DNA of 44,298 bases from Gemmatimonadota bacterium. GTDB lineage: Bacteria; Gemmatimonadota; Gemmatimonadetes; Gemmatimonadales; GWC2-71-9. This document shows positions 2,064 through 38,998 of this stretch, piece by piece. The stretch covers positions 1-44,298 of the forward strand of contig JAZDCY010000084.1 in NCBI GenBank assembly GCA_036679645.1, read 5' to 3'. Under the pieces are notes generated by a model, which worked only from the letters and a program-made list of their open reading frames with translations, had not been told where the DNA came from and made no database searches. Position 1 is the first letter of the stretch. The number at the start of each line of letters is the position of its first letter. A program made the translations under genes and the position numbers.

Positions 2064-2175
2064 CTCTAGTGAGTCGGATCACACTCTTCGGTCCGGCGAC
2101 GCCATAGTGTCGAGGAGACACGTGGGGCACAAGGCCCCGCCGTCGATGACAGACACGCGCGGAGGAGCGTTACCG

Positions 2176-2583
2176 ATGGCTGTATTCTCGAGCCCACGGA
2201 ACGGTGATCAATCCGAATTCCGCATCGACAACGGGCACGCACTGTCGATACTCGCGCCGGGGAGTTCGGTGGTGGGCGACCTGGTGTCCGACGGCGTCAT
2301 CAAGGTAGAGGGCCGAATCGAGGGACGCGTAGCCGGCCACCAGGTGCTGATCTCCAAGGGTGGACGGGTAATGGGCGATATCGAGGCGGCTGTAGCGGTG
2401 GTCGCCGGCGAGGTCCACGGCAACATCGCAGCCCGCGAACGCCTCGAGCTACAGGCCGGGTGCACCGTCCACGGAAACGTAACGGCCGCGCGCGTGGTGA
2501 TTCACGAGGGCGGCGAGCTGAACGGACAGCTGCGCATGGAGCGGAAAGCCACCGTGAGCGCGCCCAGTTCGGTAGCCGCCTAG
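2176..2583 (+). CDS. Bactofilin (polymer-forming cytoskeletal protein)
   Basis: GGAGGAG RBS at 2161. SILAPGSSVVGDL...IKVEGRIEG...VAGEVHGNI...VHGNV...GGELNGQLRM is the bactofilin beta-helix pattern. Confidence 0.9.
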   Translation: MAVFSSPRNGDQSEFRIDNGHALSILAPGSSVVGDLVSDGVIKVEGRIEGRVAGHQVLISKGGRVMGDIEAAVAVVAGEVHGNIAARERLELQAGCTVHGNVTAARVVIHEGGELNGQLRMERKATVSAPSSVAA

Positions 2584-7229: not shown

Positions 7230-8882
7230 ATGCGGGCTGTGCAAGAACGCGGCAGGACGGACGGTCACACAGAGGACGGGACGCGCCGCCGGCGCCCCTC
7301 AGGCGCCTCGGGCCTCGAGCTGACTCGTGCGCTCGCATCGGAGCATGAGCGTATGCTGACGCCGGACGCCCTCCGTTTTCTGGTGGATCTCCACCGCGCG
7401 TTCGAGCACCGTCGGCAAGAGGTCCTGGGCCGCCGATTGAAAGTCCGTACGCGAATCCGCGACGGTGAGCTGCCGGCCTTTCGCGAGGATACCGCACACA
7501 TCCGCACGGCCGCCTGGACGGTGGCACCCATTCCCGCCGACCTCCAGGACCGGCGCGTCGAAATCACCGGGCCGGTCGATCGCAAGATGATCATCAACGC
7601 GCTCAATTCGGGCGCAAACGTCTTCATGGCGGACTTCGAGGACTCAAACAGTCCTACCTGGCAGAACGTCATCGACGGGCAGGTAAACCTGCACGACGCC
7701 GTGCGCCGCACGATCAGCTTCACCAACCCCGACGGCAAGCACTATGCACTTGGTGACGACACAGCCGTACTCTTCGTCCGGCCACGGGGCTGGCACCTCT
7801 CAGAGCAGAATTGTCTGGTCGACCGCACCCCCATGTCCGGGTCACTGTTCGATTTCGGCCTGTTCTTCTATCACAATGCCCACGCGCTCATCGAGGCTGG
7901 GACCGGGCCGTACTTCTATCTCCCCAAACTCGAAGATGCGCACGAGGCCCAGCTCTGGAATGACGTTTTCGTCTTTGCCCAAGATGCCCTGGGCGTGCCG
8001 CGCGGTACGATTCGCGCTACGGTACTGATCGAAACGATCTTGGCCGCCTTCCAGATGGACGAGATCCTGTGGGAGTTGAAGGACCACTCCGCCGGTCTGA
8101 ACTGCGGGCGCTGGGACTACATCTTCAGCTTCATCAAGACGTTCGCCAATCGTCCCGACTTCCTGCTGCCCGACCGCGGGCAGGTCACGATGGACAGCCG
8201 TTTTCTCCACGCGTACGTCGAGTTGCTGATCCACACGTGCCATCGGCGCGGCATCCACGCCATGGGCGGCATGGCCGCCCAGATTCCCATCAAGGGCGAT
8301 GAGGAGGCCAATGCGCGCGCAATCGAGCAGGTGCGCCAGGACAAGCTGCGCGAGGTGCGGGCCGGCCACGACGGGACGTGGGTCGCGCATCCCGGCCTCA
8401 TTCCGGTGGCCAGGGCAATCTTCGACGAGCACATGCCGACCCCGCATCAGATCGACAACACGCGCGACGATGTCGACGTGGACGCCTCCGACCTACTGGC
8501 CGTCCCCGACGGAACGATCACGCGCGCTGGTCTCCGGCACAACGTCGACGTCGGCATCCAGTACCTCGAAGCGTGGCTGCGCGGGTCGGGTTGCGTTCCC
8601 ATCTACAACCTGATGGAAGACGCCGCGACAGCAGAGATCTCCCGTACGCAGGTCTGGCAGTGGGTGCGGCATGCGGCCACGCTCGACGACGGCGCGACAG
8701 TGTCCGCGGCTATCGTCGAGGAGACGATCCTCGAGGTGCTCAAATCCATACGCGATCGGTTGGGAGCGTCACAGTTTGCGAACTCGCAGTTCACACTCGC
8801 CGGACGACTCTACAAGGACATGATGATCGCCCCCGAGCTGGGGGAGTGGCTCACAACCGTAGCCTACGAGCACATCGACTGA
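7230..8882 (+). CDS. aceB: Malate synthase A
   Basis: [40 protein letters not shown] and [12 protein letters not shown] motifs. Confidence 0.97.
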
Positions 8883-8902
8883 AACCGGGACGCGAGGGCT
8901 CC

Positions 8903-10213
8903 ATGGACAAGCGGATCTTCGTCAATCAACTGCAACACCGCTGGACCCACGAGGCGCGGTGGCAAGGAATAGAGCGCCCCTACTGCGCCGAGGACGTCTG
9001 GCGACTCGCGGGTACGGTCCGCATAGACCACTCGCTGGCACGAATCGGATCCGAGCGCCTCTGGAAGCTGCTGCTCGACGAAGCGTACGTGCACGTCCTG
9101 AGTGCCGTCACCGGCAATCAAGCCATCCAACAGGTCCGCGCCGGGTTGCGGGCAATTTATGTGAGTGGCTGGCAGGTGGCGGGAGACGCCAACGACATGG
9201 GCGAAGTCTACCCGGACCAGAGTCTGTACCCCGCCAACAGCTGTCCCAACCACGTCGAGCGCATCAACAACGCGCTGCTCCGCGCCGACCAGATTCACCA
9301 TCAGCGGGGTGAGGACGCGACGGAGTGGCTCGTTCCCGTCATCGCCGATGGGGAAGCCGGCTTTGGTGGCCTGCTGAACGCCTTCGAGCTAATGAAGAAC
9401 ATGATCAAGAAAGGTGCAGCCGGCGTGCACTTCGAGGATCAGCTCGCCTCACTGAAGAAGTGCGGCCATCTGGGCGGTAAGGTGCTCGTGCCAACCCAGG
9501 AGTTCATCAACAAGCTCGTGGCCGCCCGGCTCGCAGCCGACGTGTGTGGCGTCGATACCGTGCTCATCGCGCGCACCGACGCCCTGAGCGCGACGATCCT
9601 GGCCAACGATATCGACCCCAACGACCAACCGTACCTGACCGGTGAGCGCACGCCCGAGGGGTTCGCCCGCATCCGGTGCGGCATCGAGGCAGCGATCGCC
9701 CGCGGGTTGGCCTACGCTCCCTACGCGGATGTGCTCTGGTTCGAGACCGGCAAGCCGGATCTCGAGGAAGCGGGCCAGTTTGCCGAGGCCATGCACGCGC
9801 GGTTCCCCGGCAAGCTCCTGGCGTATAACTGCTCGCCGTCATTCAACTGGAAAATGCACCTCAGCGATCGGGAGATTGCGACGTTCCAGCACGAGCTTGG
9901 CAGTCTGGGCTACAAGTTCCAATTCGTGACCCTCTCGGGATTCCATTCCCTGAACCACGCCATGTATGAACTGGCCAGTGGCTACCGGGACCGCGGCATG
10001 GCCGCCTACGCCGATCTCCAGGAGCGAGAGCTCGCCACCGAAGAGGAAGGATACGAGGCCATCAAGCACCAACAGTTCGTCGGCGCCGGATACTTCGACC
10101 AGATTACGCAGATCGTCACACAAGGAGAATCGGCGGTCCTGGCCATGGAGGGATCCACCGAAGAAGAGCAGTTCGAGGAGCACCCCGCTTCTCCGCAACG
10201 CGCCAGCGCATGA
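8903..10213 (+). CDS. aceA: Isocitrate lyase
   Basis: [30 protein letters not shown] and [10 protein letters not shown] motifs. ATG at 8903 after GAGGG. Confidence 0.97.
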
Positions 10214-10299
10214 GCGGCGGTTCGGTGGGCTGACGGGGTGGGGGAATACACACCACCCCGGCCGACCCACCGAGCCGCTGGCTCGCCAACCACCCCCTT

Positions 10300-10328
10300 T
10301 GAAACCATCTCCCCCCCTCGTGCGTCTA
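10300..10328 (+). promoter_or_regulatory. ECF sigma-type promoter
   Basis: TGAAAC-N17-CGTCTA, matching the SigM/SigW-like ECF consensus. Confidence 0.55.
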
Positions 10329-10333
10329 TAACG

Positions 10334-10458
10334 CAGGGGAAGGGATGGCCATCTACGGCCTGTCGCCACGGAGCATGGCAAACGGACACCCCCCATCGGG
10401 CCGGCTGTCCCCTCTCTCCACCCCTCTGCCCCATCTCATCGGGCAGAGGGGTTTCTCT
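10334..10458 (+). ncRNA. Candidate ~125-nt structured small RNA or leader ending in a terminator hairpin
   Basis: Helices 10342-10350/10403-10411, 10357-10362/10397-10402 and 10365-10368/10376-10379. Promoter upstream and a 12-bp hairpin downstream. Confidence 0.45.
10420..10458 (+). terminator. Intrinsic terminator-like hairpin
   Basis: ACCCCTCTGCCC-N9-GGGCAGAGGGGT followed by a short pyrimidine tail (TTCTCT). Confidence 0.55.
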
Positions 10459-10539
10459 GTGCTGGCTGATCTCCGGGGACTTGACTGAACTCCGCCGCGG
10501 GCCAACTCTACAACGTCCCATCGGAGGAGCCGGACGTTC

Positions 10540-11004
10540 ATGCCTGCCATCACGTTTACGCTGAACGGTCAAGCACAGACCGTCGATGCACCCGCCGATA
10601 TGCCGCTGTTGTGGGTAATCCGCGACCTCGTGGGTCTCACGGGCACCAAGTTCGGGTGCGGTATCGGTCAGTGTCGCGCGTGCACCGTGCACCTGAACGG
10701 CAACGCGACGTTCTCCTGCCAGCTACCGGTCTCGGCCGTCGAGGGCCAGACAGTGACGACCATCGAGGGACTGTCGGAAGACGGGCTCCATCCGGTACAG
10801 CGTGCGTGGATCGACGTGGACGTGCCCCAGTGTGGCTACTGCCAGCCCGGCCAGATCATGTCTGCCGTCGCCCTGCTCGCCCAGAACCCGCAACCGTCCG
10901 ATGACGACATCGACCGGGCCATGTCCGACAACATCTGCCGGTGCGGTACCTACAACCGGATTCGCCGGGCCATTCATGTGGCGGCTGAGGAGATGAACCG
11001 ATGA
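10540..11004 (+). CDS. iorA: Isoquinoline 1-oxidoreductase-type alpha subunit, (2Fe-2S)-binding
   Basis: [22 protein letters not shown] and NICRCGTY motifs. GGAGGAG RBS. Confidence 0.9.
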
Positions 11005-13130
11005 CCGCCCTCACGATGAAACGCCGCGATTTTCTGCAAGTGTCTACGATTGGAGGGGCCTTCATCCTCGGGTTCCGGATCCCGACGAGCCGGCCCGCCA
11101 CACCTGCCGGCTCCTCGGTGGGCAGCGACATCAATGCCTGGATCCGCGTCGACCAGGATGACACGATCACGATGTTCGTGAGTGAATCGGAAATGGGACA
11201 GGGCATCATGACGGCGGTTTCCATGCTGCTCGCAGACGAGATGGAAGCGGATTGGTCGCACGTGCGGGCCGAACACGCGCTTGCCGACCGCGACAAATAT
11301 GGTAGTCAGTCGACGGGCGGCTCGACCTCGATCCGGGCAGGCTACGAGCGATTCCGCCAGGCCGGTGCCGCCGCCCGCGAGATGATGATCGCGGCCGCCG
11401 CCGACCGGTGGGGTGTACCCGCCGACGACTGCCGCGCCGAGCAGAGCGTTGTGATCCACACGCCGACGAATCGCGGATTGCGCTACGGCGAGCTGGCAAC
11501 CGCTGCGGCCGCCATGCCGATCCCCGAACACCCGCGGCTCAAGGAACCATCTGAGTTCCGTCTCATCGGCCACAGCACCAAGCGCCTCGACACCCCGCTC
11601 AAGGTGACGGGCCGCGCCACGTTCGGGATTGATGTCCGGATTCCCAACATGGTGGTCGCACAGGTAGTGCACTGCCCGGTGTTTGGGGGACAGGTGGCGA
11701 GGTTCGACGCCAGCCGCGCCAAGGATGTACCGGGCGTGCTCGACGTCGTCGAGATCCCCACAGGCGTCGCAGTAGTAGCCGAACATTTTTGGGCGGCCAA
11801 GAAGGGCCGTGACGTACTCGATGTGACATGGGACGAGGGCGCGAACGCCAACCTGTCATCAGACGGGATCACCGCCCGGTGCCGGGAGATCGTGGGTTCC
11901 GGAACCACGGCTCGTACCGACGGGAATGCGGAAACGGCCATCGCGAACGCCAGCCGCACTCTCAGTGCGACGTACCACGTGCCGTACCTGGCCCACGCGA
12001 CCATGGAACCGATGAACTGCACTGCCGATGTGCGCGTCGACCGGTGTGAGATCTGGGCCCCTACACAATCACCTTCGGGCGCGCAACGCACGGGGATGAG
12101 CATTACTGACCTGCCCGCCGACCGCGTCACGGTGCATACGACGTTCATGGGTGGGGGATTCGGCCGGCGCTCGGAATCCGACTTCGTTGCCGACGCCGTT
12201 CACGCCTCCAAAGCCGTCGGGCGGCCGGTGAAGATCATCTGGACGCGGGAAGACGACACGCGGGGCGGGTACTATCGGCCCACCGCGTACAACGAGTTCG
12301 TGGGCGCGGTTGACGCCAACGGTTGGCCCAGTGCGTGGGTGCACCGTATCGCGAGTCCGTCGATTCTCATGAGCAAGGGTTACGGGCTACGGGACGGACT
12401 CGATGCCCCGGCGATCGAGGGGGCCGCGAACATCCCCTACGGTTTCCCCGACCTGCACGTCACGTGGGCTGACCCCGAGATTCCGATCCCGCTACACTGG
12501 TGGCGATCGGTCGGGAGCTCCCAGAATGCGTACGTCACCGAGTGTTTCTTCGACGAACTCTGCGCTCTAGGAGGCGTCGATCCCCTCGAAGCCCGGCTGC
12601 GCATGCTCGACTCCCATGCGAGACACCGCGGGGTGCTCAACGTCGCCGCTGAGCACTCGGGATGGGGCACGCCACTCCCGACGGGGCGTGCGCGTGGGAT
12701 CGCGGTCCACGAGTCATTTGGTAGCATCGTGGCGCAGGTAGCAGAGGTATCGCTGCGCGATGACGGACTTCCGCGGGTACATCACGTCACCTGCGCGGTG
12801 GACTGCGGCATCGTGGTGAACCCCGACACCGTTCGTGCCCAGATGGAGAGCGGCATCATGTACGGGTTGTCGGCCGCGCTGTATGGCGAGCTGACCATCG
12901 AGCGCGGGCGCGTGGTGGAAAGCAACTTCCATGACTACCCCGTCGTCCGGATGCGCGAGGCGCCAACGGTCGATGTGCAGATCGCCGTGCATGGCGACGC
13001 GCCGGGCGGTATTGGGGAACCCGGCACACCTCCCATTGCACCCGCCGTAGTGAACGCCATGCGGGCGCTGACTGGTGAGCCCACTCGACAGTTGCCGATG
13101 CGACTGGGGATCGGGCGGGCGGATGGTTGA
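11001..13130 (+). CDS. iorB: Xanthine dehydrogenase-family molybdopterin-binding subunit (IorB type) with Tat signal
   Basis: KRRDFL Tat motif, SEMGQG, TGGSTS, HATMEP, GGGFGRR, WRSVG and GIGEP. ATGA overlap with iorA. Confidence 0.92.
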
Positions 13131-15332: not shown

Positions 15333-16421
15333 ATGATCCGCGCGACCGTCATGACCGAACCGATGAAACCGCTCGAGGTACGGGAACTCCCAGACCCAAC
15401 GGTCGAGCCCGGCGGCATCCTGTTGGAAACGCTGGCGAGCGAGGTGTGTGGAACGGACGTGCACTTGCACCACGGGCGGCTGGCCGGCGTGCCGTACCCG
15501 ATCATTCCGGGACACATTAGCGTGGGACGCATCGTCGAGCTGCGCGACGTCACGACCGACGCGTTGGAACGCCCTATAGCTCTCGGCGATATCGTCACGT
15601 TTTATGACGTGCACGAGATCTGCAACGCGTGCTACCACTGTCTCGTGGCGAAGCAGCCCAACCGGTGTCCGTCCCGCAAGGTGTACGGCATCACGTACTC
15701 CGCCGATGACGGTCCCCTGGGCGGTTGGGCCGAGCGCATCTACCTGAAACCGGGCGTGCGAGTCCTCAGACTTCCAGACGGGCTCACGGTCGATGACGTC
15801 ATCGGCGGCGGCTGCGGATTGTTCACGGGATTCGGCGCCGTGCGACGCGCCGATATCGAGTTGGGAGATACGGTCCTCGTGCAGGGAGCCGGACCGGTTG
15901 GCCTCTCGGCAGCGGCGTTCGCCGCCCTGCGCGGCGCGGCCCAGGTAATCGTCATCGGCGCGCCACAGACACGACTCGATCTCGCTCGACGTCTTGGTGC
16001 CGACGTGACGCTCTCGCTCGACGAGGGTCCGCCGCACGAGCGCGAGGAGCGGATCCGCGCACTGACCGGCGGACGGGGGGTCGATGTCGCCATCGAAGCC
16101 GCAGGTAACCCAGCCGCCATCACGGAGGGGTTCCGCCTGCTCCGAGACGGCGGCACGTACGTCATCGCCGGCCACTATACCGACGTCGGCACTGTGAACG
16201 TGAACTTCCACACCGAGGTCAACCGCAAACACGCCGACGTACGCGGGCAGTGGGGTACCGACTTCGCCGACATGGTCCGCGCCCTGACGCTGTACGCCAA
16301 GTGCCGCGAGCGCCTCCCGTTTGCGGATGTTATTGGCGGGCGGTACGGCCTCGAGGACGCCGGCCGTGCCCTCGCGGACGTGGAGGCGCTGCGGGTGACG
16401 AAGGCGATCATCGTTCCCTAA
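15333..16421 (+). CDS. Zinc-dependent alcohol dehydrogenase (MDR superfamily)
   Basis: CGTDVH, PGH, CNACYHC...C structural Zn site and GAGPVG. Confidence 0.92.
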   Translation: MIRATVMTEPMKPLEVRELPDPTVEPGGILLETLASEVCGTDVHLHHGRLAGVPYPIIPGHISVGRIVELRDVTTDALERPIALGDIVTFYDVHEICNACYHCLVAKQPNRCPSRKVYGITYSADDGPLGGWAERIYLKPGVRVLRLPDGLTVDDVIGGGCGLFTGFGAVRRADIELGDTVLVQGAGPVGLSAAAFAALRGAAQVIVIGAPQTRLDLARRLGADVTLSLDEGPPHEREERIRALTGGRGVDVAIEAAGNPAAITEGFRLLRDGGTYVIAGHYTDVGTVNVNFHTEVNRKHADVRGQWGTDFADMVRALTLYAKCRERLPFADVIGGRYGLEDAGRALADVEALRVTKAIIVP

Positions 16422-17071
16422 TGGCCGTTCCTTTCGAGACGTATCTCTTCGATCTCGACGGGACACTCATCGACTCGATCGAGCTGATTCTCACATCGTA
16501 CCGCCACACAATGCGCGTGCACCGCGGCACCGAGCCCTCGGACGACCTCTGGCTCGCCGGCTTGGGGACCCCGCTCACTGCGCAGTTCCGTGACTTCACG
16601 GATGACCCAGCCGAAGTCGAGGCGATGATCGCTACATATCGAGCCTACAACCGCGAGCATCACGACCGCATGGTCCGACCCTACGACGGCATAGTCGACG
16701 CAGTAGAGAAGGTGGCACAGCACGCTCAGCTCGGTGTCGTCACGAGCAAGACGCACGAGGGCGCGGAGCGGGGCCTACGGTCCTGTGGTCTTGACGGCAT
16801 CTTTCACGCAATCGTCGGCTCGGACGATGTGACGCGCCACAAGCCTGACCCTGCGCCGGTCCAGCACGCGCTACGCCTGCTCGACGGCACGCCGGAGACA
16901 ACGGTCTTCGTGGGAGATTCGCCGCACGACATGGCGGCGGGGCGGGCGGCCGGCGTGCGGACAGCCGCCGCGCTCTGGGGCCCTTTCGGGCGACCGCAGC
17001 TCACGCCACAAGCACCCGACTATTGGCTGGATGCGCCGGCGGCGCTCACCCAGCTTGCACATACGTCTTAA
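16421..17071 (+). CDS. HAD-family hydrolase (PpaX/phosphoglycolate phosphatase-like)
   Basis: FDLDGTL, VVTSK, KPDP and VGDSPHD motifs. TAATG coupling to the upstream gene. Confidence 0.9.
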   Translation: MAVPFETYLFDLDGTLIDSIELILTSYRHTMRVHRGTEPSDDLWLAGLGTPLTAQFRDFTDDPAEVEAMIATYRAYNREHHDRMVRPYDGIVDAVEKVAQHAQLGVVTSKTHEGAERGLRSCGLDGIFHAIVGSDDVTRHKPDPAPVQHALRLLDGTPETTVFVGDSPHDMAAGRAAGVRTAAALWGPFGRPQLTPQAPDYWLDAPAALTQLAHTS

Positions 17072-17178
17072 GTGTTGTATTTAAAGCGGTTACAGAATCC
17101 AATTCCGTGGTCCTCACGGTACAGTTCGCAGCGAGCCTTCGGATGTGACTCGGCCGGATTCAGCGGAGGGAACTCACG

Positions 17179-17553
17179 GTGAACTCGGAGCGCGAGACGA
17201 TCTCCATCCTCGTCGTCGATGACGAAGAGGGCATTCGTAGGAATCTGCGGCGTTACCTGGAGCGGCTCGGATACGAAGTGACGGTGGCCGCTGACGGCCA
17301 TCAGGGGCTTGCCGAGCTACGTAGGCGCGCGTTCGATCTTGCGTTCATCGATTTCGCGATGCCCAAAATGACCGGCATCGAGTTGATCCAACGAATGCGC
17401 ACCCACTACCCCAACGTCATTCCGATCGGGATGAGTGGTTACTGGAAGTCGTTCGATCTCGAGGCCTGTTCGCTCGACGATCGATCGTTCTTGCGGAAGC
17501 CGTTCACGCTCGCCCAAATCTCCGAGATCTTGGAGTCTTACCTCACTGCGTGA
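17179..17553 (+). CDS. Single-domain response regulator (REC)
   Basis: ILVVDDE, DFAMPKMTG, MSG and LRKPF motifs. GGAGGG RBS. Confidence 0.9.
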   Translation: MNSERETISILVVDDEEGIRRNLRRYLERLGYEVTVAADGHQGLAELRRRAFDLAFIDFAMPKMTGIELIQRMRTHYPNVIPIGMSGYWKSFDLEACSLDDRSFLRKPFTLAQISEILESYLTA

Positions 17554-17682
17554 TCGCCGCCGCCGGCCCCGCCGCCCATCTCCCCATGCGGCGTCATCGT
17601 CCGCCAGAGAGGTGGGTTGCGATTTTCCCTCTGACACACGCATCTTCGAAGACACAACATCACGCCAGACGACCCCGGAGCC

Positions 17683-18417
17683 ATGACGGAACTGCTCACC
17701 GAAGCCGAGCAGCAGGAATTGTTCGTGCGGGTGGACCGGGCGGCCGCAACGGGATCGCTCCTGCGCGGTCTGATCCATGCCGTACGGAACCCGCTCCAGA
17801 GCATCGTGATTGCCGCGACCTCGATTGCCGAGGACGCGGGCGAGCGCGCCGATGCCGTAATGACCGACCTGGTTGAGGAGCAGACCGCCGAGCTTACCGC
17901 GGTCCTTCACAAGCTCGCTGGTCTCACGCCGCCCACCCCCACCGCGACCGCACCAGAGCCCACGAGCGTGCACGATGTTGTGGCGTACGTGCTCGACATC
18001 CAGCAGTACCAGCACCTCGGCATGATCATCACCGTGCACGATGATCTTCCGGAGGACCTCCCGCTCGTCCAGGCACGCGAGCCACAACTGCAACACGCAT
18101 TGCTGAACGTGATCACGAACGCCAAGGACGCGTTGCAGCATCAGACGGACGGCGCTGTGTGGCTCTCGGCGGCGCGCCGCAGCGCGTACGTCGAAGTCGC
18201 CATAGAAGACAACGGGCCCGGCGTGGCAGGGGAGGTGCGCGAGCGGCTCTTCACACCGCACGGTTCTACCAAGGACGATCCACACGCCGGCCTCGGACTG
18301 ACCGTGGCGCGGTACCTCGTGGAGCGTGACGGCGGATCGCTGGCGTTTGCGGGCGAGAGCGCGCGCGGCGGGGCCCGGTTTGTGTTCCAGATCCCCGTGT
18401 GGCAGGAGACCGCCTAG
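17683..18417 (+). CDS. Cytoplasmic histidine kinase (HisKA + HATPase, no sensor domain)
   Basis: H box LIHAVRNPL, N box LLNVITNAKDA, G1 DNGPG and G2 AGLGL. Confidence 0.85.
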   Translation: MTELLTEAEQQELFVRVDRAAATGSLLRGLIHAVRNPLQSIVIAATSIAEDAGERADAVMTDLVEEQTAELTAVLHKLAGLTPPTPTATAPEPTSVHDVVAYVLDIQQYQHLGMIITVHDDLPEDLPLVQAREPQLQHALLNVITNAKDALQHQTDGAVWLSAARRSAYVEVAIEDNGPGVAGEVRERLFTPHGSTKDDPHAGLGLTVARYLVERDGGSLAFAGESARGGARFVFQIPVWQETA

Positions 18418-18614
18418 GAAACAGGCGGTTCAGATGGCGTCGCCTCGGGCTGTGCGGCAGTCTCGTCCTCCACCAACTCCGCTCTCCGTATAATCAACTC
18501 CCGCGGGGCATCGATGCCGAGGCGGACGCCCCGACGTGACGAGTCCAGCACGACAATCCGTATACCGCCACCGAGCAACACCGCTTCACCCGGCCGCCGG
18601 CTCAGTACGAGCAT
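18414..18614 (-). CDS. csrA: Carbon storage regulator CsrA
   Basis: MLVLSRRPGE...VRLGIDAP...I.R.EL signature. Confidence 0.9.
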   Translation of the reverse strand: MLVLSRRPGEAVLLGGGIRIVVLDSSRRGVRLGIDAPRELIIRRAELVEDETAAQPEATPSEPPVS

Positions 18615-18625
18615 CGAGACGCGCC

Positions 18626-18700
18626 TCAGACCATCCGCAAGAGTTCTTGCATCAGATCACGCAACAACCGATCGGGTTTCATGATGCTTCGTAAAGACAT
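18626..18700 (-). pseudogene. 24-aa chimeric ORF, a putative deletion scar of flagellar rod/hook genes
   Basis: AAGGAGG RBS, then MSLRSIMKPDRLLRDLMQELLRMV*. The C-terminal DLMQELLRMV resembles the axial flagellar (FlgK/FlgE-type) C-terminal motif. Lies between fliA and csrA. Confidence 0.45.
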
Positions 18701-18751
18701 GCATCCTCCTTGGAACCATGCGGCTGGTATCGCCGCCTCAAGACCTTCCGC

Positions 18752-19513
18752 TCAGACTTCGAGCACTGGCGAGAGCACCCGCCGCAGTCTACGGAGCGCC
18801 TGGCTGCGGATCTGCGAGATCCGTGACTCGGTGAGATGCAGGAGCCCCGCGATCTGGCGCAGTTTCAGATGCTCGAAGTAATAGAGCGCCAACACCGTGC
18901 GTTCGCGCTCGGGCAGATCGCGCAGCGCGTTCTGCAGCGCGGCGACCTCCCCTTCGTGTTGCAGCGAGTCGTGCGCTTCGAGCCCGGATGAGCCCGCCAG
19001 CGTTTCGCCCAGCGCCAGCGCATTCTCGTTGTCGCCCGTGCCTGGGACATCGAGAGGAATGAGAGTTCCGCCTTCCGTCTCTTCCCGCCACCGCCAGTAT
19101 GTCTCCAGCTCGAGATTGAGCTCAAAGGCGGTCTCCTCATCGGTTGGCGCGCGGCCGAGCACGCCCCGCAACCGTTCCTGGGCGTTCCGAGTGTCGCGGG
19201 CTTTCGATCGAACCGACCGAGGTATCCAGTCGGTTGCTCGGAGGTCGTCGAGGATCCCGCCGCGGATCCGCGGCGTTGCATAGGTACTGAACGCGAGACC
19301 ACGTGACCGATCGAACGACTCGAGCGCGCGCACCAGCCCGAGCGTGCCCGAACTGACGAGGTCGTCGAGTTCGACTTCGTCCGGAAGGTTCACGTGGATC
19401 GCGCGCGCGACGTGGTGCACCAGACCGAGGTGGCGCTCGAGTAGCTGCGCCCGAGCGGTCGCATCGCCCTGATCTCGATAACGCTGCCAGAGCCGTTCGT
19501 CGACTTCGTTCAT
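18752..19513 (-). CDS. fliA: RNA polymerase sigma factor FliA/WhiG (sigma28)
   Basis: DDLVSSGTLGL, FSTYATPRIRGGILDDLR..DWIPRSVR, LYYFE and TESRISQI motifs. Confidence 0.93.
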   Translation of the reverse strand: MNEVDERLWQRYRDQGDATARAQLLERHLGLVHHVARAIHVNLPDEVELDDLVSSGTLGLVRALESFDRSRGLAFSTYATPRIRGGILDDLRATDWIPRSVRSKARDTRNAQERLRGVLGRAPTDEETAFELNLELETYWRWREETEGGTLIPLDVPGTGDNENALALGETLAGSSGLEAHDSLQHEGEVAALQNALRDLPERERTVLALYYFEHLKLRQIAGLLHLTESRISQIRSQALRRLRRVLSPVLEV

Positions 19514-19770
19514 AGTTCCCCTCCTGCGTGAGCCGCGGCGTACACGGGGGTGTCGTCGAGGCCAAGCGCGTCGGTCATGACGCTCGCGAGCGACTGGGAG
19601 GCAGGCATCGTCTCAGCGATGCCGAGCGGGAATGCGAAATCGGATGCGTCGGCAGGAGCCAGCGCGTTGGCGACACGCGACGCGATGCCGCAGTGCGTCG
19701 CGCTGACCTCATCGAGACCATCGCGCACCTTGGCGGGCATCGTACCTGCACCAAAGAGTCCCCGAATCAT
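19510..19770 (-). pseudogene. FlgB-like N-terminus fused to an unrelated C-terminal remnant
   Basis: GGGAGG RBS and sigma54 promoter. GLDEVSATHCGIASRVANA resembles FlgB LD....R...IA.N.AN, but no FlgB C-terminal helix follows. ATGA-coupled to fliA. Confidence 0.5.
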
Positions 19771-19801
19771 CCGCACCTCCCTGAGTTGGGGCTCTCGAAA
19801 A

Positions 19802-19817
19802 AGCAAGGCGTGTACCA
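19802..19817 (-). promoter_or_regulatory. Sigma54 -24/-12 promoter for the flgB-like/fliA/csrA unit
   Basis: TGGTACACGCCTTGCT on the minus strand (GG-N10-GC), immediately downstream of a sigma54 activator gene. Confidence 0.8.
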
Positions 19818-19978
19818 AGCGCGCACGCGCTGGTTGAACACCATCGCAGCATGAGTCAACTTCATGATATACTTGAGGTTAGACAGCGTTACCAGCCGTC
19901 AGAGAGGTGCCCTGGTAGGCGGGGTCCGACTACCCAATGCGGAAAAAGTTTCCGCATGGTTGGTGGCGTTTTTTGCCG

Positions 19979-21361
19979 CTACGACGCCTTGGTGTTCAGC
20001 TTGTTCCGCAGCGTGCGCTCACTTACACCAAGCAGCTTCGCCGCCCGCGAGCGGTTGCCTTCGGTTGTGTGAAGCGCCCGCTGAATCAAGATCGCTTCGA
20101 TCTCGCGCAGGTCGTACAACTCTGGTGGGATGCCGTCATACGGACCGGCCATTCCGTCGGCATTGGTGAGTGCCTGGGCGCGTGGGGCGACCGCCCCCTC
20201 GAGAAAGCCCGCGAACGAATCGGGACCGATCACGCCACCGCCCGCCATGATCACCGCGCGCTCGATCACGTTGCCGAGTTCGCGCACGTTGCCCGGCCAC
20301 CGGTGCGATTGCAACAGGCGGATAGCCTCCGGAGACACGCTCGGCGCGGGGACCTCCAGTTCCTGCGAAACCTTGCGTACGAAATACTGCACCAGTAGCG
20401 GGATGTCTTCGAGGCGTTCGCGAAGTGCCGGGGTGCGGATCGGCACGACTGCGAGACGGTAATAGAGGTCCTCACGGAACTCCCCTTTCTCGAGGGCGGC
20501 CTTGAGATCGCGGTTGGTCGTCGCGACCAGGCGTACGTCAACGGAGATGGACGATGAGCCGCCAACGCGCTCGAACTCCTGCTCCTGGATCACGCGGAGC
20601 AGCTTGGCCTGAAGGTCCAGCCGCATCTCGGAGACCTCGTCGAGCAGCAACGTCCCGCCGTTGGCGCGCTCGAACGCGCCGCACGATCGGGCCGTCGCCC
20701 CAGTAAACGCGCCTTTCTCGTGCCCGAACAGCGCGCTCTCCACCAGCCCCTCCGGAAGGGCCGCACAATTCAACGTGACGAAGGGCCGCTCGTTGCGCGG
20801 GCTCTGCTCGTGAATGGCCCGAGCGAACAGCTCTTTGCCCGTCCCGGACTCACCCTCGAGCAGCACGGTCGCGCGGGTGGGCGCAACGGTGCCCATCGTC
20901 AGCAATGCCTTGCGCAAAGCGGCCGACTCGCCAATGATCTGGCGACTCGTGCGGATCTCACAGAGTTCGCGCCGGAAATTCGCGTTTTCTCGCCGCAACC
21001 GGATCACCTGCAACGCCTGCTCTACCGCCACACGCAAGGTCTCCTGGCGCACCGGCTTGGTCAGATAGTCGATCGCCCCGCTCTTGATCGAGGTAACGGC
21101 GTTCTCGATGCTCGAGTACCCCGTCATCATGATCACCGGGATGTCGTGGCCTTCGTCCTCGAGCCGGCGCAGCAGGTCCACACCCGTAGCTTTGGGCATC
21201 TGGTAATCGGAAAGGATGAGCGCGACCTGATTCTTACGGATCAGGTCGAGTGCGTCATTGACACTGCGCGCGTACAGCGGACGGTGACCCAGCTTGCTGA
21301 GAACGTGTTCAATGACGACGCCGACCGCCGGCTCGTCGTCAACGCAGAGAATAGTGGGCAT
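19979..21361 (-). CDS. Sigma54-dependent response regulator (REC-AAA+-Fis HTH; FleR/FlrC/AtoC-like)
   Basis: GESGTGKE, ESALFGHEKGAFTGA, LLLDE, FREDLYYRL, WPGNVREL and an HTH domain. Confidence 0.95.
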   Translation of the reverse strand: MPTILCVDDEPAVGVVIEHVLSKLGHRPLYARSVNDALDLIRKNQVALILSDYQMPKATGVDLLRRLEDEGHDIPVIMMTGYSSIENAVTSIKSGAIDYLTKPVRQETLRVAVEQALQVIRLRRENANFRRELCEIRTSRQIIGESAALRKALLTMGTVAPTRATVLLEGESGTGKELFARAIHEQSPRNERPFVTLNCAALPEGLVESALFGHEKGAFTGATARSCGAFERANGGTLLLDEVSEMRLDLQAKLLRVIQEQEFERVGGSSSISVDVRLVATTNRDLKAALEKGEFREDLYYRLAVVPIRTPALRERLEDIPLLVQYFVRKVSQELEVPAPSVSPEAIRLLQSHRWPGNVRELGNVIERAVIMAGGGVIGPDSFAGFLEGAVAPRAQALTNADGMAGPYDGIPPELYDLREIEAILIQRALHTTEGNRSRAAKLLGVSERTLRNKLNTKAS

Positions 21362-21689
21362 CGATCCCCGGACCGGTCCATCGGTGAAACCGTCGTGTCC
21401 GACTGCTCGTGGACGCGCTCTCTAAGGCTCGCGCCCACAAGGCCTTAACCGAGCGCCTTTCCATCATAATGGGATGACGGGTGGCAATAAGGCAAATGCG
21501 GTGACGCCGCGGAGAACGGGGGCGCAGCGGCACTCCGTCCCCTTCCCGGTCTGGTTGATCGGCGAGACGGGCCGCCGGAAAACACAATTACCGCGCCCCC
21601 CGCGGACGCGAAGCTCGCGTCGCATTTTGACTGCATGCGGCAGACAGAAATGCCGATACTCAAACGCGAAGGGATGCGATCCGCGTCCC

Positions 21690-21717
21690 TTGAGTTCCTT
21701 TACCTGAGGGCCGATAC
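21690..21717 (+). promoter_or_regulatory. Sigma28-like promoter upstream of flgM
   Basis: TTGAG-N15-GCCGATAC, 23 nt before the ATG. A second GCCGATAC lies at 21652-21659. Confidence 0.6.
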
Positions 21718-21740
21718 TTGAGGGATGACGGGAGTACGCA

Positions 21741-22052
21741 ATGACGATCGACCCCATTCAGTCCGGTCCCGCCTTTGGGCACCGTAAGGTGCAACAGCCC
21801 GACAGCCCGGAGCCCGCTGCGGAGAGCCGCGGCGCGAAAACTCGCCCGAGCGACCAACACGACCGGGTCGAGTTTTCCAGCGCGGATCGCGAGCTCGCCA
21901 AACTGATCGAGGGCGCCGGACCGCCCGGGCTCGAGGTCTCAGCGGACCGTCTCCGCGAGATCGCGCAACGGCTTGCCGAGGGCCACTACAATTCGCCCGA
22001 GGTGCGCGAGGACGTCGCCCGAGCGATCCTCAACGAGTTGCGCGGCGGCTGA
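21741..22052 (+). CDS. flgM: Anti-sigma28 factor FlgM-like protein
   Basis: Low-complexity N-terminus, DRVEFS and DRLREIAQRLAEGHY...VARAIL FlgM C-terminal pattern. Adjacent to fliA. Confidence 0.75.
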   Translation: MTIDPIQSGPAFGHRKVQQPDSPEPAAESRGAKTRPSDQHDRVEFSSADRELAKLIEGAGPPGLEVSADRLREIAQRLAEGHYNSPEVREDVARAILNELRGG

Positions 22053-22056
22053 GGCC

Positions 22057-22491
22057 ATGACCGGCGTCACACCACCATCACAGCCAACACCACTCAACCC
22101 AATCCGGGGCCATATCCTCCTGGTCGATGATGAAGACGCGGTACGCCGCGTCGTCGGGACATTGCTCCAGAAACTGGGATACCAGGTCACACGCGCCGCG
22201 AGCGGCACCGCCGCCCTCGCCGCCCTCCAAGAGCACGACTACGACGTGATGATCTGCGATCTCTGCATGCCCGAACTATCGGGTGCAGAGGTCTACGCCC
22301 GAATGGAGCACGAGCATCCGTCAATGACCAACCGGGTCGTGTTCACCAGCGGCGATCTCGAGACCGACAACGCGCGCGCGCTCCTCGCCCGAGCCGGCGG
22401 CCCTGGCGTTCAGAAGCCCTACGATATCGAGACCCTGCTCACAGCGGTACGCACGGTGCAGGCCTCGACACCTCAACGCAAATCGGCGTAG
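22057..22491 (+). CDS. Single-domain response regulator (REC)
   Basis: ILLVDDE, CDLCMPELSG, FTSG and QKPY motifs. Confidence 0.88.
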   Translation: MTGVTPPSQPTPLNPIRGHILLVDDEDAVRRVVGTLLQKLGYQVTRAASGTAALAALQEHDYDVMICDLCMPELSGAEVYARMEHEHPSMTNRVVFTSGDLETDNARALLARAGGPGVQKPYDIETLLTAVRTVQASTPQRKSA

Positions 22492-22663
22492 CACCCGCCT
22501 CCCCCGTTACCACAGCACCGCCGGGAAGGCAAGCCAGCAACGGGTGGGCCGCGCGATGCCACCGAACTCACAGATACTCGCTAGCCGAGGCCTGCAAACC
22601 CTCTCGCGCCAACGAGTATCTAACCTCCGGATCACCACTTCATCGCAGCACCGGAGGAGAGTC

Positions 22664-23746
22664 ATGCACAGCACCGTTTCCGCCGTTCGCTCCGCGATCG
22701 GCCTGGCAGTCATGGCAGCAGCGTTGGCCGCGACCGCGTCTCCAGCAACTGCGCAACGGTACGAGTTGAGCGGTGGGCGGGTTGCAGTCTACAACCTCGC
22801 CGGCGAGATCACGTTGGAGCCGGGGTCCGGGTCGGCCGTCATCGTCACCGTGACCCGGGGCGGCGCCGACGGCGACGCGCTCGACGTTGAGACCGGTCCC
22901 CTCAATGGGTGGGAGACGCTGCGGGTGCTCTATCCCGAGGACGACATCATCTATCGGCCGCGTGGACGCCGGAGCCGCATGCAAACCACGATCCGGGTCC
23001 GCGAGGACGGCACGTTCGGCGACGGCAACCGTCACGATCGACGCCGGCGAGGGCGTCGCGTGGAGATCCATTCCTCGGGCCGCGGGTTCGAGGGGTGGGC
23101 AGATCTCACCATCCAAATTCCGCGAGGCAAGCAGTTCGCCATCAACCTCGGCGCGGGCACGGTGTCGGCCAGCAACATCGATGGGAACATCCATATAGAC
23201 ACACACTCCGGCGGTGTCAGCGCGACCGGGATGCAGGGCCCACTGTCGATCGACACCGGATCCGGCAGCATCGAGGTGACGGATGCGCAAGGGGATCTCA
23301 ACCTCGATACCGGATCGGGCGGGGTCGATGTCTCGGGCATCGCAGGTGAATCTCTGCGTATCGATACGGGATCGGGCTCCGTGATCGCGTCGCAGATTAC
23401 GGTGACGGACCTGGACATCGACACCGGCTCGGGCCGGATAGACGTCACCGACGCAAGCGCCCAGCACATCGTCATGGACACGGGCAGCGGCTCGGTCCGT
23501 GCCACATTCCACGGGTACGTCGAGAACGTAGCGGTCGATACTGGATCCGGCAGCGTCACGCTCACACTGCCGGAGACATTTTCTGCCACGGTGGACATCG
23601 AGACCGGCTCGGGCGGGATCGACCTGGACTTCCCAGTCGAGGTTCAGCGTTGGGAACGCGACCACGTGCGTGGGGTCATCGGCGACGGGCGGGGACGGCT
23701 CACGATCGACACGGGGTCCGGCAGCATCACGATCCGGCAGGGGTGA
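22664..23746 (+). CDS. Exported DUF4097-family beta-strand repeat protein
   Basis: Signal peptide and many DTGSG repeats. GGAGGAG RBS. A weak ECF-like GCAAAC-N17-TATCTA lies at 22594-22622. Confidence 0.88.
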   Translation: MHSTVSAVRSAIGLAVMAAALAATASPATAQRYELSGGRVAVYNLAGEITLEPGSGSAVIVTVTRGGADGDALDVETGPLNGWETLRVLYPEDDIIYRPRGRRSRMQTTIRVREDGTFGDGNRHDRRRRGRRVEIHSSGRGFEGWADLTIQIPRGKQFAINLGAGTVSASNIDGNIHIDTHSGGVSATGMQGPLSIDTGSGSIEVTDAQGDLNLDTGSGGVDVSGIAGESLRIDTGSGSVIASQITVTDLDIDTGSGRIDVTDASAQHIVMDTGSGSVRATFHGYVENVAVDTGSGSVTLTLPETFSATVDIETGSGGIDLDFPVEVQRWERDHVRGVIGDGRGRLTIDTGSGSITIRQG

Positions 23747-23755
23747 GCGGTAGGC

Positions 23756-23801
23756 GGTGCGCAGTGCGCGGGAGATCCGTTCTCACCGCTCACTGCGCAC
23801 C
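23756..23801. repeat. ~20-bp imperfect inverted repeat built from heptamer units
   Basis: GGTGCGCAGTGCGCGGGAGA pairs with TCTCACCGCTCACTGCGCACC. Confidence 0.75.
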
Positions 23802-23861
23802 CCCCACCCGCTTGTCACCGCCCCTTCCATCGCCCCGCATCGCCCACCATTTTCCCTCTTC

Positions 23862-24983
23862 ATGAGGCCCTTCGTTCCGTTTGAGCTCGAGCGCTGGCAA
23901 AGCGTGTGGGAACATCGCGTCCGCTTCAACCTGTCGGAAAGCGGCGTCCACCCCTTGTCGATCGGCGAGCTTCTCGACCTCTCGGGTGGCGATCTCGCGG
24001 ACCTCGCCGAGTTGCGCATGATCTACAACCAAGGCGACGGGTCCGACGAGCTGCGATCCGCCGTCGCCGCCCTCTATCCCGGCGCGACCGAAGCCAACAT
24101 CACCGTCACGCTGGGCAGCTCCGAAGCCAACTTCATTGCCTGCTGGACTGTGATCGAACCCGGCGACCACGTCGCCATCCTCATGCCGGCGTACAAGCAG
24201 ACGTGGGGGTTGGCAAAGAACTTCGGCGCGGACCTCTCGACCTTCGCGCTATCGTTTGCCAGCGGATGGGAACCGGATCCTGACGACATTGCGCGCGCCA
24301 TTACCGATGATACGAAACTCGTGATCGTGACCAATCCGAACAATCCGACAGGCCACGTGCTCTCGGATACCGCGCGGGCGGCAATCGTGGCGCGGGCCCA
24401 AGCCGTTGGTGCTTGGCTGCTCGTGGACGAAGTGTATCAGGGCGCGGAGCGCGACGGGCGGACGACAGCCAGCTTCTGGGGCAGCTACGAGCGCGTCATC
24501 GTCAGCAACGGGCTCTCGAAGGCGTACGGCCTGCCGGGTCTCCGGATCGGGTGGCTGGTCACCCCACCGGATTTCAAGCGGCAGGTCATCCGCAGACACG
24601 ACTATGCCGTCATTTGCCCCAGCCCGGCGAGCGACTACCTCGCCCGCCAGGCGCTCGCGGTACGCGAGCGCATTCTCGAGCGTACTCGCGGGATTCTGCG
24701 AGAGAACTACCCCTTGCTCGACCGATGGCTGAAGAGCTTCAATGGCCTGTTTGAATGGCACCCGCCCGAATGCGGCGCAATCTGCTTCGTACGGTATCGG
24801 CATTCGCTCACCGCGCTTGACCTCGTGGAACGCATCCGCAGCGAGCACGACATGCTGCTGGTTCCCGGAGAGCATTTCGACATACCCGGTCACCTACGGC
24901 TCGGTTACGGCAACGAGCGCGAGGAGCTGGAGATCGCGTTGGACCACCTGCGGCCGGCGATCGGTGACCTGCTGGGAGACTGA
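23862..24983 (+). CDS. PLP-dependent aminotransferase class I/II
   Basis: NLSESG, TNPNNPTG, DEVY and GLSKAYGLPGLRIGW motifs. Confidence 0.93.
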   Translation: MRPFVPFELERWQSVWEHRVRFNLSESGVHPLSIGELLDLSGGDLADLAELRMIYNQGDGSDELRSAVAALYPGATEANITVTLGSSEANFIACWTVIEPGDHVAILMPAYKQTWGLAKNFGADLSTFALSFASGWEPDPDDIARAITDDTKLVIVTNPNNPTGHVLSDTARAAIVARAQAVGAWLLVDEVYQGAERDGRTTASFWGSYERVIVSNGLSKAYGLPGLRIGWLVTPPDFKRQVIRRHDYAVICPSPASDYLARQALAVRERILERTRGILRENYPLLDRWLKSFNGLFEWHPPECGAICFVRYRHSLTALDLVERIRSEHDMLLVPGEHFDIPGHLRLGYGNEREELEIALDHLRPAIGDLLGD

Positions 24984-37839: not shown

Positions 37840-37985
37840 GTGCGCGGTAGGGGCGCGTGCAGTGCGCCCCCGGGCTGCGTGCGCGGTAGGGGCGCGTGCA
37901 GTGCGCCCCCGGGCTGCGTGCGCGGTAGGGGGCGCACTGCGTGCGCCCCCGCCCCCGCCTCCGGGCGCACGCCATGCGCCCCTAC
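37840..37985. repeat. GTAG-family REP-like array (39-bp period)
   Basis: GTAGGGGCGC...GCGCCCCC palindromes starting at 37847, 37886 and 37925, plus an inverted copy ending CGCCCCTAC at 37985. Confidence 0.8.
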
Positions 37986-38998
37986 CGCCGTATGGCCACG
38001 CGTCCCGTTTCGAGGACTATTCGTTCGCCGGGCCGGCGACGTCGGTTTTCGGCGGCAACTTCTGCAACCCGCGCTTCCCAGGCGGCTCGACGTACCTCAT
38101 TCGCGACAACATTGTCGGGATACGGCCGGCCAGGCCTCCGCTCGAAGAAGCCGATGACCCCTGCGGCCGCGAGGACCAGCGCGGTCGCGAACTTGGGTCC
38201 GTCGTTGTCCGTGAAGACCGGTACGACCACGAGCGCCGCCCCAGCAGCCCCCAGCCCGAGACCCAGGCGGAGAAGACCCGGTCCCAGCGGCTCGCGCTGG
38301 GGCAGGAAATCGGGCGCGGGAGGACGCACGAGCGAATCGCGCATGGTGCGCGCAAGCCGGATCGGAACGTCGACGGTGCGCACCGGCTCGTCACCATCCC
38401 CCATCGACGACACACTCATGTTGTAGAGACCTTCAGCCAACCGGCGGCGGCGAGCGCCCCGCCCGTCCCACACGACGCGCGCGCTGTCCTCCACCAGCCC
38501 GTCATGGAGTGTACGCACGGCGCGACCGGCCGCGTCTTCGATACGCACACGTACGTGGTGGGGTGTGCTAGGATATAGCCGCGTGGCAAGACCACCTCGG
38601 CCCGGTTCGAAGGTGACACGACGGACCGTCTCCACCGCTACGACCATAGTCTGGCGGCGGGCCTGGTCAAATGCATCGAGGACGCGAGGGGCAAACGCGA
38701 GCCGATCGAGACGATATCTGGGATCCGTCTGAATGAGACGCTCGAACGCCGCGAAGGCGGAGTCGCGCCGATCCCGATAGAACTCGGCCGCGCCGAGATA
38801 CGCGAGGGCGTGCGTCCGATCTGCCTCTGGAAGATCGTGGGCGCCGAGCGAGAGGCGCAGCATCCGGGTAGCAGCCTCCATCTCGAGCGCGCGAAACGCG
38901 TCAATACCCTGCACGAGGAACTGAGGGCCTGTCTGCGCGACGGCGGGAACCGGCGCAGCCATCACGGCGGCGAGCACCGCAAGGTGCGCAACGCGCAT
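37982..38998 (-). CDS. Exported/membrane protein with a TPR-like region and FlgD-Ig-like domain
   Basis: Signal peptide, ALAYLGAA TPR-like helices, GRAVRTL...VVWDGR...GLY and two C-terminal hydrophobic helices. TGATG-coupled to the kinase. Confidence 0.72.
   Translation of the reverse strand: MRVAHLAVLAAVMAAPVPAVAQTGPQFLVQGIDAFRALEMEAATRMLRLSLGAHDLPEADRTHALAYLGAAEFYRDRRDSAFAAFERLIQTDPRYRLDRLAFAPRVLDAFDQARRQTMVVAVETVRRVTFEPGRGGLATRLYPSTPHHVRVRIEDAAGRAVRTLHDGLVEDSARVVWDGRGARRRRLAEGLYNMSVSSMGDGDEPVRTVDVPIRLARTMRDSLVRPPAPDFLPQREPLGPGLLRLGLGLGAAGAALVVVPVFTDNDGPKFATALVLAAAGVIGFFERRPGRPYPDNVVANEVRRAAWEARVAEVAAENRRRRPGERIVLETGRVAIRR

Follow-up and report, generated by a model that had tools for sequence, protein, structure and literature searches.

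We describe a 44,298-nucleotide stretch of DNA from a Gemmatimonadota bacterium (GenBank assembly GCA_036679645.1, contig JAZDCY010000084.1; the window hereafter) in which a block of flagellar regulatory genes stands without flagellar structural genes. The block—a histidine kinase, CsrA, the sigma factor FliA (sigma-28), a sigma-54 activator, the anti-sigma factor FlgM and two stand-alone REC proteins—is probably the regulatory core that remained after the structural genes were deleted, likely still working as a cascade. Its genes can be identified, one of the remnants between them is a scar of flgB, the assembly contains no structural genes, similar cassettes recur in the family, and the window's CsrA has lost the residues through which FliW binds. 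The window is the whole of contig C84 of the source assembly (labelled G000; 4.05 Mb in 100 contigs, 92.7% complete, 0.5% contamination). It was compared with a family sample of 250 genomes, 53 of which have a FliA orthologue and 197 no match; 18 of the 53 lack flhA, and these together with G000 form the set of 19 flagellum-less fliA genomes that we call cassette genomes.

Evidence of deletion comes from gene order. Flagellated relatives share a common layout in which one arm runs activator, flgB, flgC, fliE-K, flgD, flgE, fliL-R, flhB, flhA, flhF, fleN and fliA, and continues with a small open reading frame (ORF), flgF-G-A-H-I-J-N-K and csrA; the divergent arm carries flgL, fliW, fliC, fliD, fliS and flgM, and a kinase gene is convergent to csrA. 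The window keeps this order, and the relatives hold the full cluster where the window has short gaps: the flgB start lies 257 bp from the fliA start (about 21.6 kb in G192), the fliA end 138 bp from the csrA start (about 6.9 kb in the flagellated layout), and the activator 380 bp from flgM (about 13.7 kb in G192 and 4.9 kb in G111). Two small ORFs had been pointed out by an earlier reading of the sequence (the first-pass annotation) where structural genes usually lie, and both are deletion scars. The longer, of 86 aa (19510-19770, minus strand), consists of FlgB residues 1-67 and a tail, behind the old flgB promoter; it matches positions 1-67 of 97 of the FlgB hidden Markov model (HMM) at E 6e-17 (5e-12 in the genome-wide profile search), and its stop codon runs into the start of fliA, just as that of fleN does in relatives. 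The junction inside it falls near 19565, not at about 19630 where the first-pass annotation had placed it. We considered the tail as a fleN remnant, which would suit its location, yet it has no fleN HMM match. The shorter ORF, of 24 aa (18626-18700, minus strand), probably joins the first and last residues of FlgK in frame; it precedes csrA, as flgK does in relatives, its beginning resembles FlgK heads and its ending FlgK tails. Its sole HMM match, to positions 446-455 of 455, has weak statistical support (E 0.02), so the FlgK identity leans largely on position.

The gap between the activator and flgM yielded no remnants of flgL, fliW, fliC, fliD or fliS in a profile search. Collapse of the cluster through deletion is thus supported by synteny and scars, as had been proposed; the proposed count of two large deletions gives way to three gaps, the third being that between activator and flgM, with probably four junctions. 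A single contig from X1 (depth 97.6) covers positions 15500-24500 without differences, so the region is spanned at contig level, with the proviso that X1 may be the source sample; in runs X2 and X3, which belong to the same study, no contig extends 31 bases to both sides of any junction.

All four regulators are intact. The activator (19979-21361, minus strand) is an NtrC-type protein with REC, Sigma54_activat and HTH_8 domains and is the orthologue of the flagellar cluster activator, with 57-67% identity to the cluster activators of flagellated family members. Its acidic REC motifs and the motifs GESGTGKE, GAFTGA, LLDE and WPGNVRE are all intact, and since RpoN is encoded in G000 the complete set expected of an NtrC-type activator is there: REC, AAA+ with GAFTGA and Walker motifs, helix-turn-helix and sigma-54 itself. 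FliA (253 aa; 18752-19513, minus strand) passes TIGR02479 (213.5 bits, cut-off 189.6) and PRK06986 (204.7, cut-off 201); its Pfam sigma regions 2 and 4 are over their cut-offs and region 3 slightly below. It is up to 60% identical to the FliA of flagellated family members, and its ten best named matches are all Gemmatimonadota records, at 41-58% identity; a quick FliA tree left its position without resolution. FlgM (103 aa; 21741-22052, plus strand) is full length and falls below the family cut-offs, with 23.2 against 25 bits for PF04316 and 23.4 against 40.75 for TIGR03824 (E 8e-5 in both). It aligns, as a homologue, with the gene that follows fliS in flagellated relatives (30-38% identity to the cluster copies)—it thus corresponds to the gene in the flgM position of flagellar clusters, and a sigma-28-like promoter lies ahead of it. 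A FlgM profile matched 9/10 flagellated genomes and 0/37 fliA-less ones. The first-pass annotation, which had listed an intact activator, a near-consensus sigma-54 promoter, fliA, csrA and a divergent flgM-like gene with a sigma-28-like promoter, was right on each of these genes and sites, FlgM lying just below its Pfam cut-off.

The sigma-54 promoter, too, is inherited. A sigma-54 (-24/-12) site at 19801-19817 (minus strand), TGGTACACGCCTTGCTT, is near-identical to the flgB promoter of flagellated G111, and comparable sites are found in 8/10 cassette spacers and 7/8 flagellated spacers. The earlier proposal that sigma-54 drives fliA and csrA directly is borne out as far as position goes, the inherited flgB promoter now lying directly ahead of them; transcription from the site is what we infer. 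The sigma-28-like flgM promoter (21690-21717, plus strand) reads TTGAG-N15-GCCGATAC, with a perfect -10 box and two -35 mismatches relative to the consensus from relatives. A hairpin at 21669-21691 overlaps the start of this site, and a second perfect -10 box upstream of flgM (21652-21659, plus strand) has no recognisable -35. Another sigma-28-like -10 box, with one mismatch and a poor -35, lies at 18727-18734 (minus strand) between the fliA stop and the FlgK scar and csrA; it could be a source of FliA-dependent csrA expression. No sigma-70 promoters were found within 17000-22700, and no structured RNA (c-di-GMP riboswitch, CsrB-like) matched Rfam at gathering score across the window.

We searched the whole assembly for a flagellum, using 38 profiles of structural and assembly genes built from relatives on all six frames of G000. 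Only the flgB scar and generic paralogues matched, with no intact structural gene, which agrees with the flagellum-free state that the first-pass annotation had proposed; fliC, flhA and fliW were not found in this 92.7% complete assembly, and tblastn with the cluster proteins of five relatives returned only the regulators, the kinase and generic paralogues. The profile matches outside the window, to fliI, flhF, fleN, motB and, weakly, fliJ, are most simply read as ATP synthase or Rho, signal recognition particle GTPases, ParA/MinD and OmpA-type proteins. The assembly therefore lacks the export apparatus, basal body, hook, filament and stator genes of a functional flagellar system and retains fliA and flgM intact, the combination that defines orphan regulators of the Legionella type. 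Elsewhere in the window (37982-40431, minus strand) a Ser/Thr kinase gene is followed by a gene with a FlgD_ig domain; as the latter has no match to the flagellar FlgD profile, the domain is likely a generic surface-protein domain.

CsrA carries a trace of the loss at the level of single residues. FliW binding requires V51 and N55 of CsrA in Campylobacter jejuni and N55 in Bacillus subtilis, according to the account of this interface in PMC7829508. The window's CsrA (66 aa; 18414-18614, minus strand; PF02599 63.7 bits, cut-off 27) has E51 and Q55, and with fliW absent from the assembly it is not a FliW-regulated CsrA. Across the genomes compared, V/I51 and N55 are present in the CsrAs of 10/10 FliW-bearing genomes, and both are missing from 4/4 cluster-type CsrAs of FliW-less genomes (G000, G162, G186 and G017), a count that leaves out the G208 copy, which is of a different type. 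The joint loss of FliW and of its binding residues is a clean and testable case of interface decay. The gene had been taken as part of the retained set, and it is intact in the window; however, a csrA copy is found in only 4/19 flagellum-less fliA genomes (that of G208 lying outside the cassette and unlike the cluster type), so csrA is better seen as an optional passenger. Coding scores are lowish for csrA and for the scar ORF. In G017 an isolated cluster-type csrA without V51 and N55 (L344; G017:C87:836-1015) occurs where the rest of the genome gives no match to fliA, flgM, the activator, fliW or flagellin, yet six sigma-28-like sites are present; this genome may represent a later stage of loss, or its fliA may be unassembled.

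The window is one case among many. Flagellin was matched in 0/19 flagellum-less fliA genomes, G000 included, against 3/3 controls, and in the 37 fliA-less genomes no flagellin match exceeded the cut-off. We fetched the fliA loci of all 18 family genomes: nine have the activator beside fliA or fleN-fliA, and in the other nine the activator is missing and fliA stands alone or with flgM. One of them, G162, shares the order of the window—kinase, csrA, fliA, activator, flgM, REC. Among the 19 cassette genomes FlgM is found in 13 and the activator in 10, against 0/37 and 0/37 in fliA-less genomes, with the FlgM profile derived partly from the same cassette genomes in which FlgM was counted. An RpoB tree of 26 genomes (4 of 30 were dropped, having no usable match) places G171, G186 and G162 each with a flagellated sister, and a single clade of the 10 cassette activators is rejected by an approximately unbiased (AU) test (p 3e-12, quick LG+G4 tree). 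The two results together make several origins of cassettes likely, not every one of which need be a collapse in place; the activator and RpoB trees are in conflict over the window's neighbours.

Several loci in other genomes deserve mention beside these. G122 (L340, L341; G122:C8:36000-62000) keeps basal-body and export genes, with weak flgL and flagellin matches and with fliW and csrA not found, and the corresponding locus of G171, a close sister, has collapsed completely; G122 may be an intermediate stage in flagellar loss. Two flagellated genomes carry a second fliA and a second sigma-54 activator outside the flagellar cluster (L100, G111:C71; L027, G019:C1), and the sizes of the neighbouring genes at the second G111 copy resemble those at the G162 cassette. 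Orphan fliA genes, often with a short flgM, stand beside a row of similarly sized genes at L045, L048, L055, L058, L059, L060, L061, L078 and L079, in genera g32, g73 and g49 and in flagellated and flagellum-less genomes alike; in g32 flgM and fliA are separated by an RR-HD-type gene.

The retained genes show signs of constraint. Retained function had been made conditional on selection in the first-pass annotation, and the ratios of non-synonymous to synonymous substitution (dN/dS; Nei-Gojobori) are indeed low, with synonymous divergence (dS) near saturation: FliA gives 0.09-0.14 in all 7 flagellum-less pairs and 0.04-0.36 in 4 flagellated pairs, and the activator 0.06 in the pair G132/G177. 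The window's own FliA, at 54-60% identity to its relatives, is saturated and uninformative, and the best among the metagenome matches listed are 36-40% identical, too far for the purpose. Closer to hand, a 240-base X2 contig of about 90% identity differs within fliA codons 5-54 by 13 synonymous and 3 non-synonymous changes, over 37 synonymous and 113 non-synonymous sites (depth 2.3; 16 of its 24 differences listed). The comparisons of flagellum-less pairs indicate that FliA is under purifying selection in those genomes.

From the fliC and flgM promoters of relatives we derived the motif CTCAAG-N14/15-GCCGATA, its -35 box being widened to TCARG after the G000 matches were seen. Exact motifs occur at 1.42 per Mb in flagellated genomes (n=24), 1.01 in cassette genomes (n=19) and 0.41 in fliA-less genomes (n=37), against 0.28, 0.29 and 0.25 for reversed-motif controls; a Mann-Whitney test on motif density gives p 5e-5, a value overstated since kin genomes are not independent. 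By our own gene calls, 5/5 of the fetched sites are intergenic in flagellated loci, 31/59 in cassette loci and 3/16 in fliA-less loci. Of five exact sites in G000 one is intragenic and the others precede a HAMP-HD-GYP protein, two PAS hybrid kinases and a bactofilin paralogue, and a REC-HD-GYP gene has a one-mismatch site; signalling genes thus stand behind 3/4 intergenic exact sites as against 106/3330 genes overall (Fisher p 1e-4, partly post hoc). Judged by these sites, FliA would likely transcribe the HD-GYP phosphodiesterase, the REC-HD-GYP protein, the two PAS hybrid kinases and the bactofilin. The last of these is in the window (2037-2583, plus strand), where an exact site at 2037-2062 is followed by the second bactofilin paralogue at 2176-2583. 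It stands alone, the other G000 copy being on C86; two copies are also present in cassette genomes G132 and G177 and in fliA-less G010 and G015. In other cassette genomes the genes behind sites encode PAS, REC, HDOD and CHASE4 proteins, one pilin and TonB receptors, together with unrelated or unannotated genes, and in G208 three exact sites within 1.5 kb (L250-L252; G208:C185:5714-7157) each precede a short ORF with no Pfam match. Other outputs that we considered in G000 found no such sites: none with up to 2 mismatches lies before 14 prepilin-motif or 4 PilB-like ATPase genes of type IV pili, promoters further upstream in the operons being untraced, or directly before 3 methyl-accepting chemotaxis protein or 11 GGDEF (diguanylate cyclase) genes.

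How such a cascade could run is suggested by the neighbours. The kinase (244 aa; 17683-18417, plus strand; HATPase_c E 2e-16) has no sensor domain, conserves its H-box His in 16/16 aligned homologues, and belongs to the ancestral surroundings of the cluster end, flagellated relatives also having it convergent to csrA. It adjoins fliA in 9/10 activator cassettes (the tenth is cut by a contig edge), and in the fetched loci of the nine flagellum-less fliA genomes without activator there is none, although five of those genomes keep FlgM. Its ancestral position, and its presence beside fliA only where the activator is kept, point to a kinase-to-activator step and not to FliA release; going by this co-retention, it is likely the kinase of the sigma-54 activator, in a pair like FlgSR or FleSR. 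The REC genes are likewise old: that of 124 aa (17179-17553, plus strand; PF00072 E 3e-23) occupies the position where flagellated relatives have an RR-HD-GYP gene ahead of the kinase, and that of 144 aa downstream of flgM (22057-22491, plus strand; PF00072 E 8e-23) has counterparts following flgM in flagellated relatives.

Binding of FlgM to FliA is supported by a modelled complex, which scores 0.69 with 0.00 for the best control and places the contact at the FliA C-terminal region; the runs share at least 50% of contacts, and the partner's predicted local distance difference test (pLDDT) value is at least 54. The mark it passes is reached by 116/157 solved pairs and 2/215 mismatched pairs. 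A solved sigma-28/FlgM complex exists, so the pass may reflect likeness to a solved pair; a search for a solved FlgM structure by sequence alignment found none. The N-terminal part of FlgM is its export part. While the window's FlgM is full length, the open frames of G065 and G139 are 65 and 69 aa, against about 100-130 aa in flagellated relatives, which suggests that the export part is becoming dispensable.

On our proposal, the sigma-54 activator would be switched on by the kinase, fliA and csrA would then be expressed from the former flgB promoter, and flgM and a small set of signalling genes would be the targets of FliA in turn. As the export channel is missing, release of FliA would depend on activator-driven synthesis outrunning FlgM and on FlgM being degraded, much as has been proposed for Legionella oakridgensis; FliA release through FlgM turnover, aided by activator-driven FliA synthesis, seems most likely to us. 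CsrA, in turn, would no longer be inhibited by FliW.

Several other accounts must be weighed, the most serious being that the regulators are leftovers on their way out—structural genes deleted first, regulators lingering with little or no function. This would fit the still readable flgB and flgK scars, the lowish coding scores of csrA and the scar ORF, and above all the distribution: 197/250 family genomes have no fliA match, so that most flagellum-less members are fliA-less, and both same-genus genomes (G001 and G002) lack the entire block, the HAD and DUF4097 genes being adjacent in G001. The module therefore appears dispensable over time, which weighs against the working cascade that we favour. 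So do several other points: the genomes compared are kin, the enrichment test is partly post hoc, the TCAGG variant having been added after the G000 matches, and the target sites leave no conserved footprint—a 10-kb stretch at the HD-GYP homologue of G192 contains no site with up to 1 mismatch, and 0/30 bactofilin loci have one, most of these being the other paralogue (a G002 homologue of one kinase also lacks a site, as expected of a fliA-less genome). On the same side, co-retention is what supports the kinase-activator pairing, dS is near saturation in most FliA pairs, and the X2 sister contig, at depth 2.3 and with only 16/24 differences listed, comes from a population that may itself be flagellated. 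We nevertheless regard mere leftovers as unlikely, given that four regulators are full-length with intact motifs though some 30 kb of the cluster is gone, that low dN/dS with saturated dS in flagellum-less pairs implies long retention, that cassette genomes keep sigma-28 sites above background, and that the same genes have been spared repeatedly.

A second account, raised in the first-pass annotation, is that a new partner-switching step involving the neighbouring kinase and REC proteins sets FliA free. The cassette is indeed flanked by one kinase gene and two genes for stand-alone REC proteins, and other cassettes too have REC genes next to flgM or fliA; however, neighbours of both kinds are already present in flagellated relatives, the kinase is kept only with the activator and is missing from the activator-less loci even where FlgM persists, and the published precedent in Legionella favours FlgM degradation (PMC5655016), all of which makes the step quite improbable. 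Alternatively, the cassette may have collapsed elsewhere and arrived as a ready-made island by transfer or duplication, with the same function and another history. In favour of such an origin, the 5.4-kb block is missing from the syntenic site in G001 and G002, the activator tree joins the window with G208, apart from G171, G122 and G177 and unlike RpoB, no window flanking gene lies beside any fetched flagellar cluster, and flagellated G111 and G019 have second fliA-activator copies. Third-position GC content (GC3) and coding scores are nonetheless typical of the genome, boundary repeats and mobile genes were sought at the block with none found (no repeat was convincing), and G208 lacks the flgB scar, so that we give this history little credence. 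Least credible is an assembly or binning artefact, in which flagellar genes exist but were misassembled or left unbinned: the genome is in 100 contigs at 92.7% completeness and the bridging contig may be the source sample, but the gaps are internal to one contig, the scars are in frame, CsrA has lost its FliW residues, and other genomes repeat the layout, G162 even with its genes in the window's order. We therefore retain the reading of a collapsed cluster whose regulatory core probably still works as a cascade.

A wider idea, tentative and in our view rather doubtful, is that repeated rewiring across Gemmatimonadota has produced a lifestyle switch, all three checkpoints of flagellar assembly—an export-sensing kinase, the export of FlgM, and the switch formed by flagellin, FliW and CsrA—having been deprived of their inputs. 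Were it true, the kinase would read a new signal, FliA would reset c-di-GMP and kinase signalling, FlgM would be a degradation-timed brake, shrinking to 65-69 aa frames in some lineages, and CsrA freed from FliW would be a general translational regulator. Even without it, the pattern, seen in roughly a third of the family genomes that carry fliA, amounts to a natural experiment, with replicates, on what remains of a regulon once its organelle is lost: the activator, sigma-54 promoter, FliA, FlgM and kinase survive again and again while the structural genes disappear. A practical caution follows, as matches to fliA, flgM or csrA do not indicate motility in Gemmatimonadota when 18/53 fliA-bearing genomes have neither flhA nor flagellin. 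The rest of the window includes ordinary metabolism, with malate synthase, isocitrate lyase and then a 2Fe-2S and molybdopterin oxidoreductase pair (7230-13130, plus strand) that is syntenic in G001.

The closest known parallel is found in Legionella, where non-flagellated species retain fliA and flgM and some also fleQ, fleN or fleSR, and where FlgM of L. oakridgensis represses FliA targets and seems to be degraded (PMC5655016). With this precedent, the situation is not new in kind. According to the passages of that paper on L. oakridgensis, L. israelensis, L. londiniensis and L. longbeachae, structural genes were lost at several times while sigma-28 and its anti-sigma factor were kept, a sigma-54 activator, FleN or a two-component pair is sometimes kept, and FlgM is not exportable (PMC5655016); all of this resembles the cassettes described here. 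The window differs in its phylum, in its readable scars, in a flgB sigma-54 promoter abutting fliA in a unit that includes a FliW-type csrA minus its FliW site, and in its function, which is a predicted one.

The FlgSR, FleSR and FlrBC systems of polar flagellates (PMC7064773) likewise pair a cytoplasmic kinase with an NtrC-type activator that serves the sigma-54-dependent genes for rod and hook, and their clusters are of the FlhF/FlhG type, as in the flagellated relatives; in the account given there, however, their kinase is tied to the export apparatus and MS ring, both absent here. The likeness is one of pairing and does not imply orthology to FlgS, FleS or FlrB. The FliW-CsrA switch of Campylobacter and Bacillus, as outlined in PMC7829508, has its counterpart in flagellated relatives, which possess FliW and CsrA with V/I51 and N55, whereas G000 lacks FliW, flagellin and both CsrA residues. 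WhiG2, a sigma-28 of Actinomycetota, is also kept without flagella, with c-di-GMP enzymes among its commonest predicted targets, as summarized in PMC12871210; unlike the window's FliA, whose anti-sigma factor is FlgM, it is held by RsiG and c-di-GMP, and pilus genes are without a site in G000. More broadly, one survey reports FliA matches in 41% of non-motile genomes (PMC12199754), and a Gemmatimonadota survey describes flagellar genes as patchy, its passages on flagella being silent on retained regulators (PMC10581226); our literature search, with most subscription journals outside its coverage, found no paper on retained flagellar regulators in Gemmatimonadota. The principle is thus known from Legionella—what the window and its relatives add is a scar-level anatomy of the collapse, its recurrence across a family, and the matched loss of FliW and its site on CsrA.

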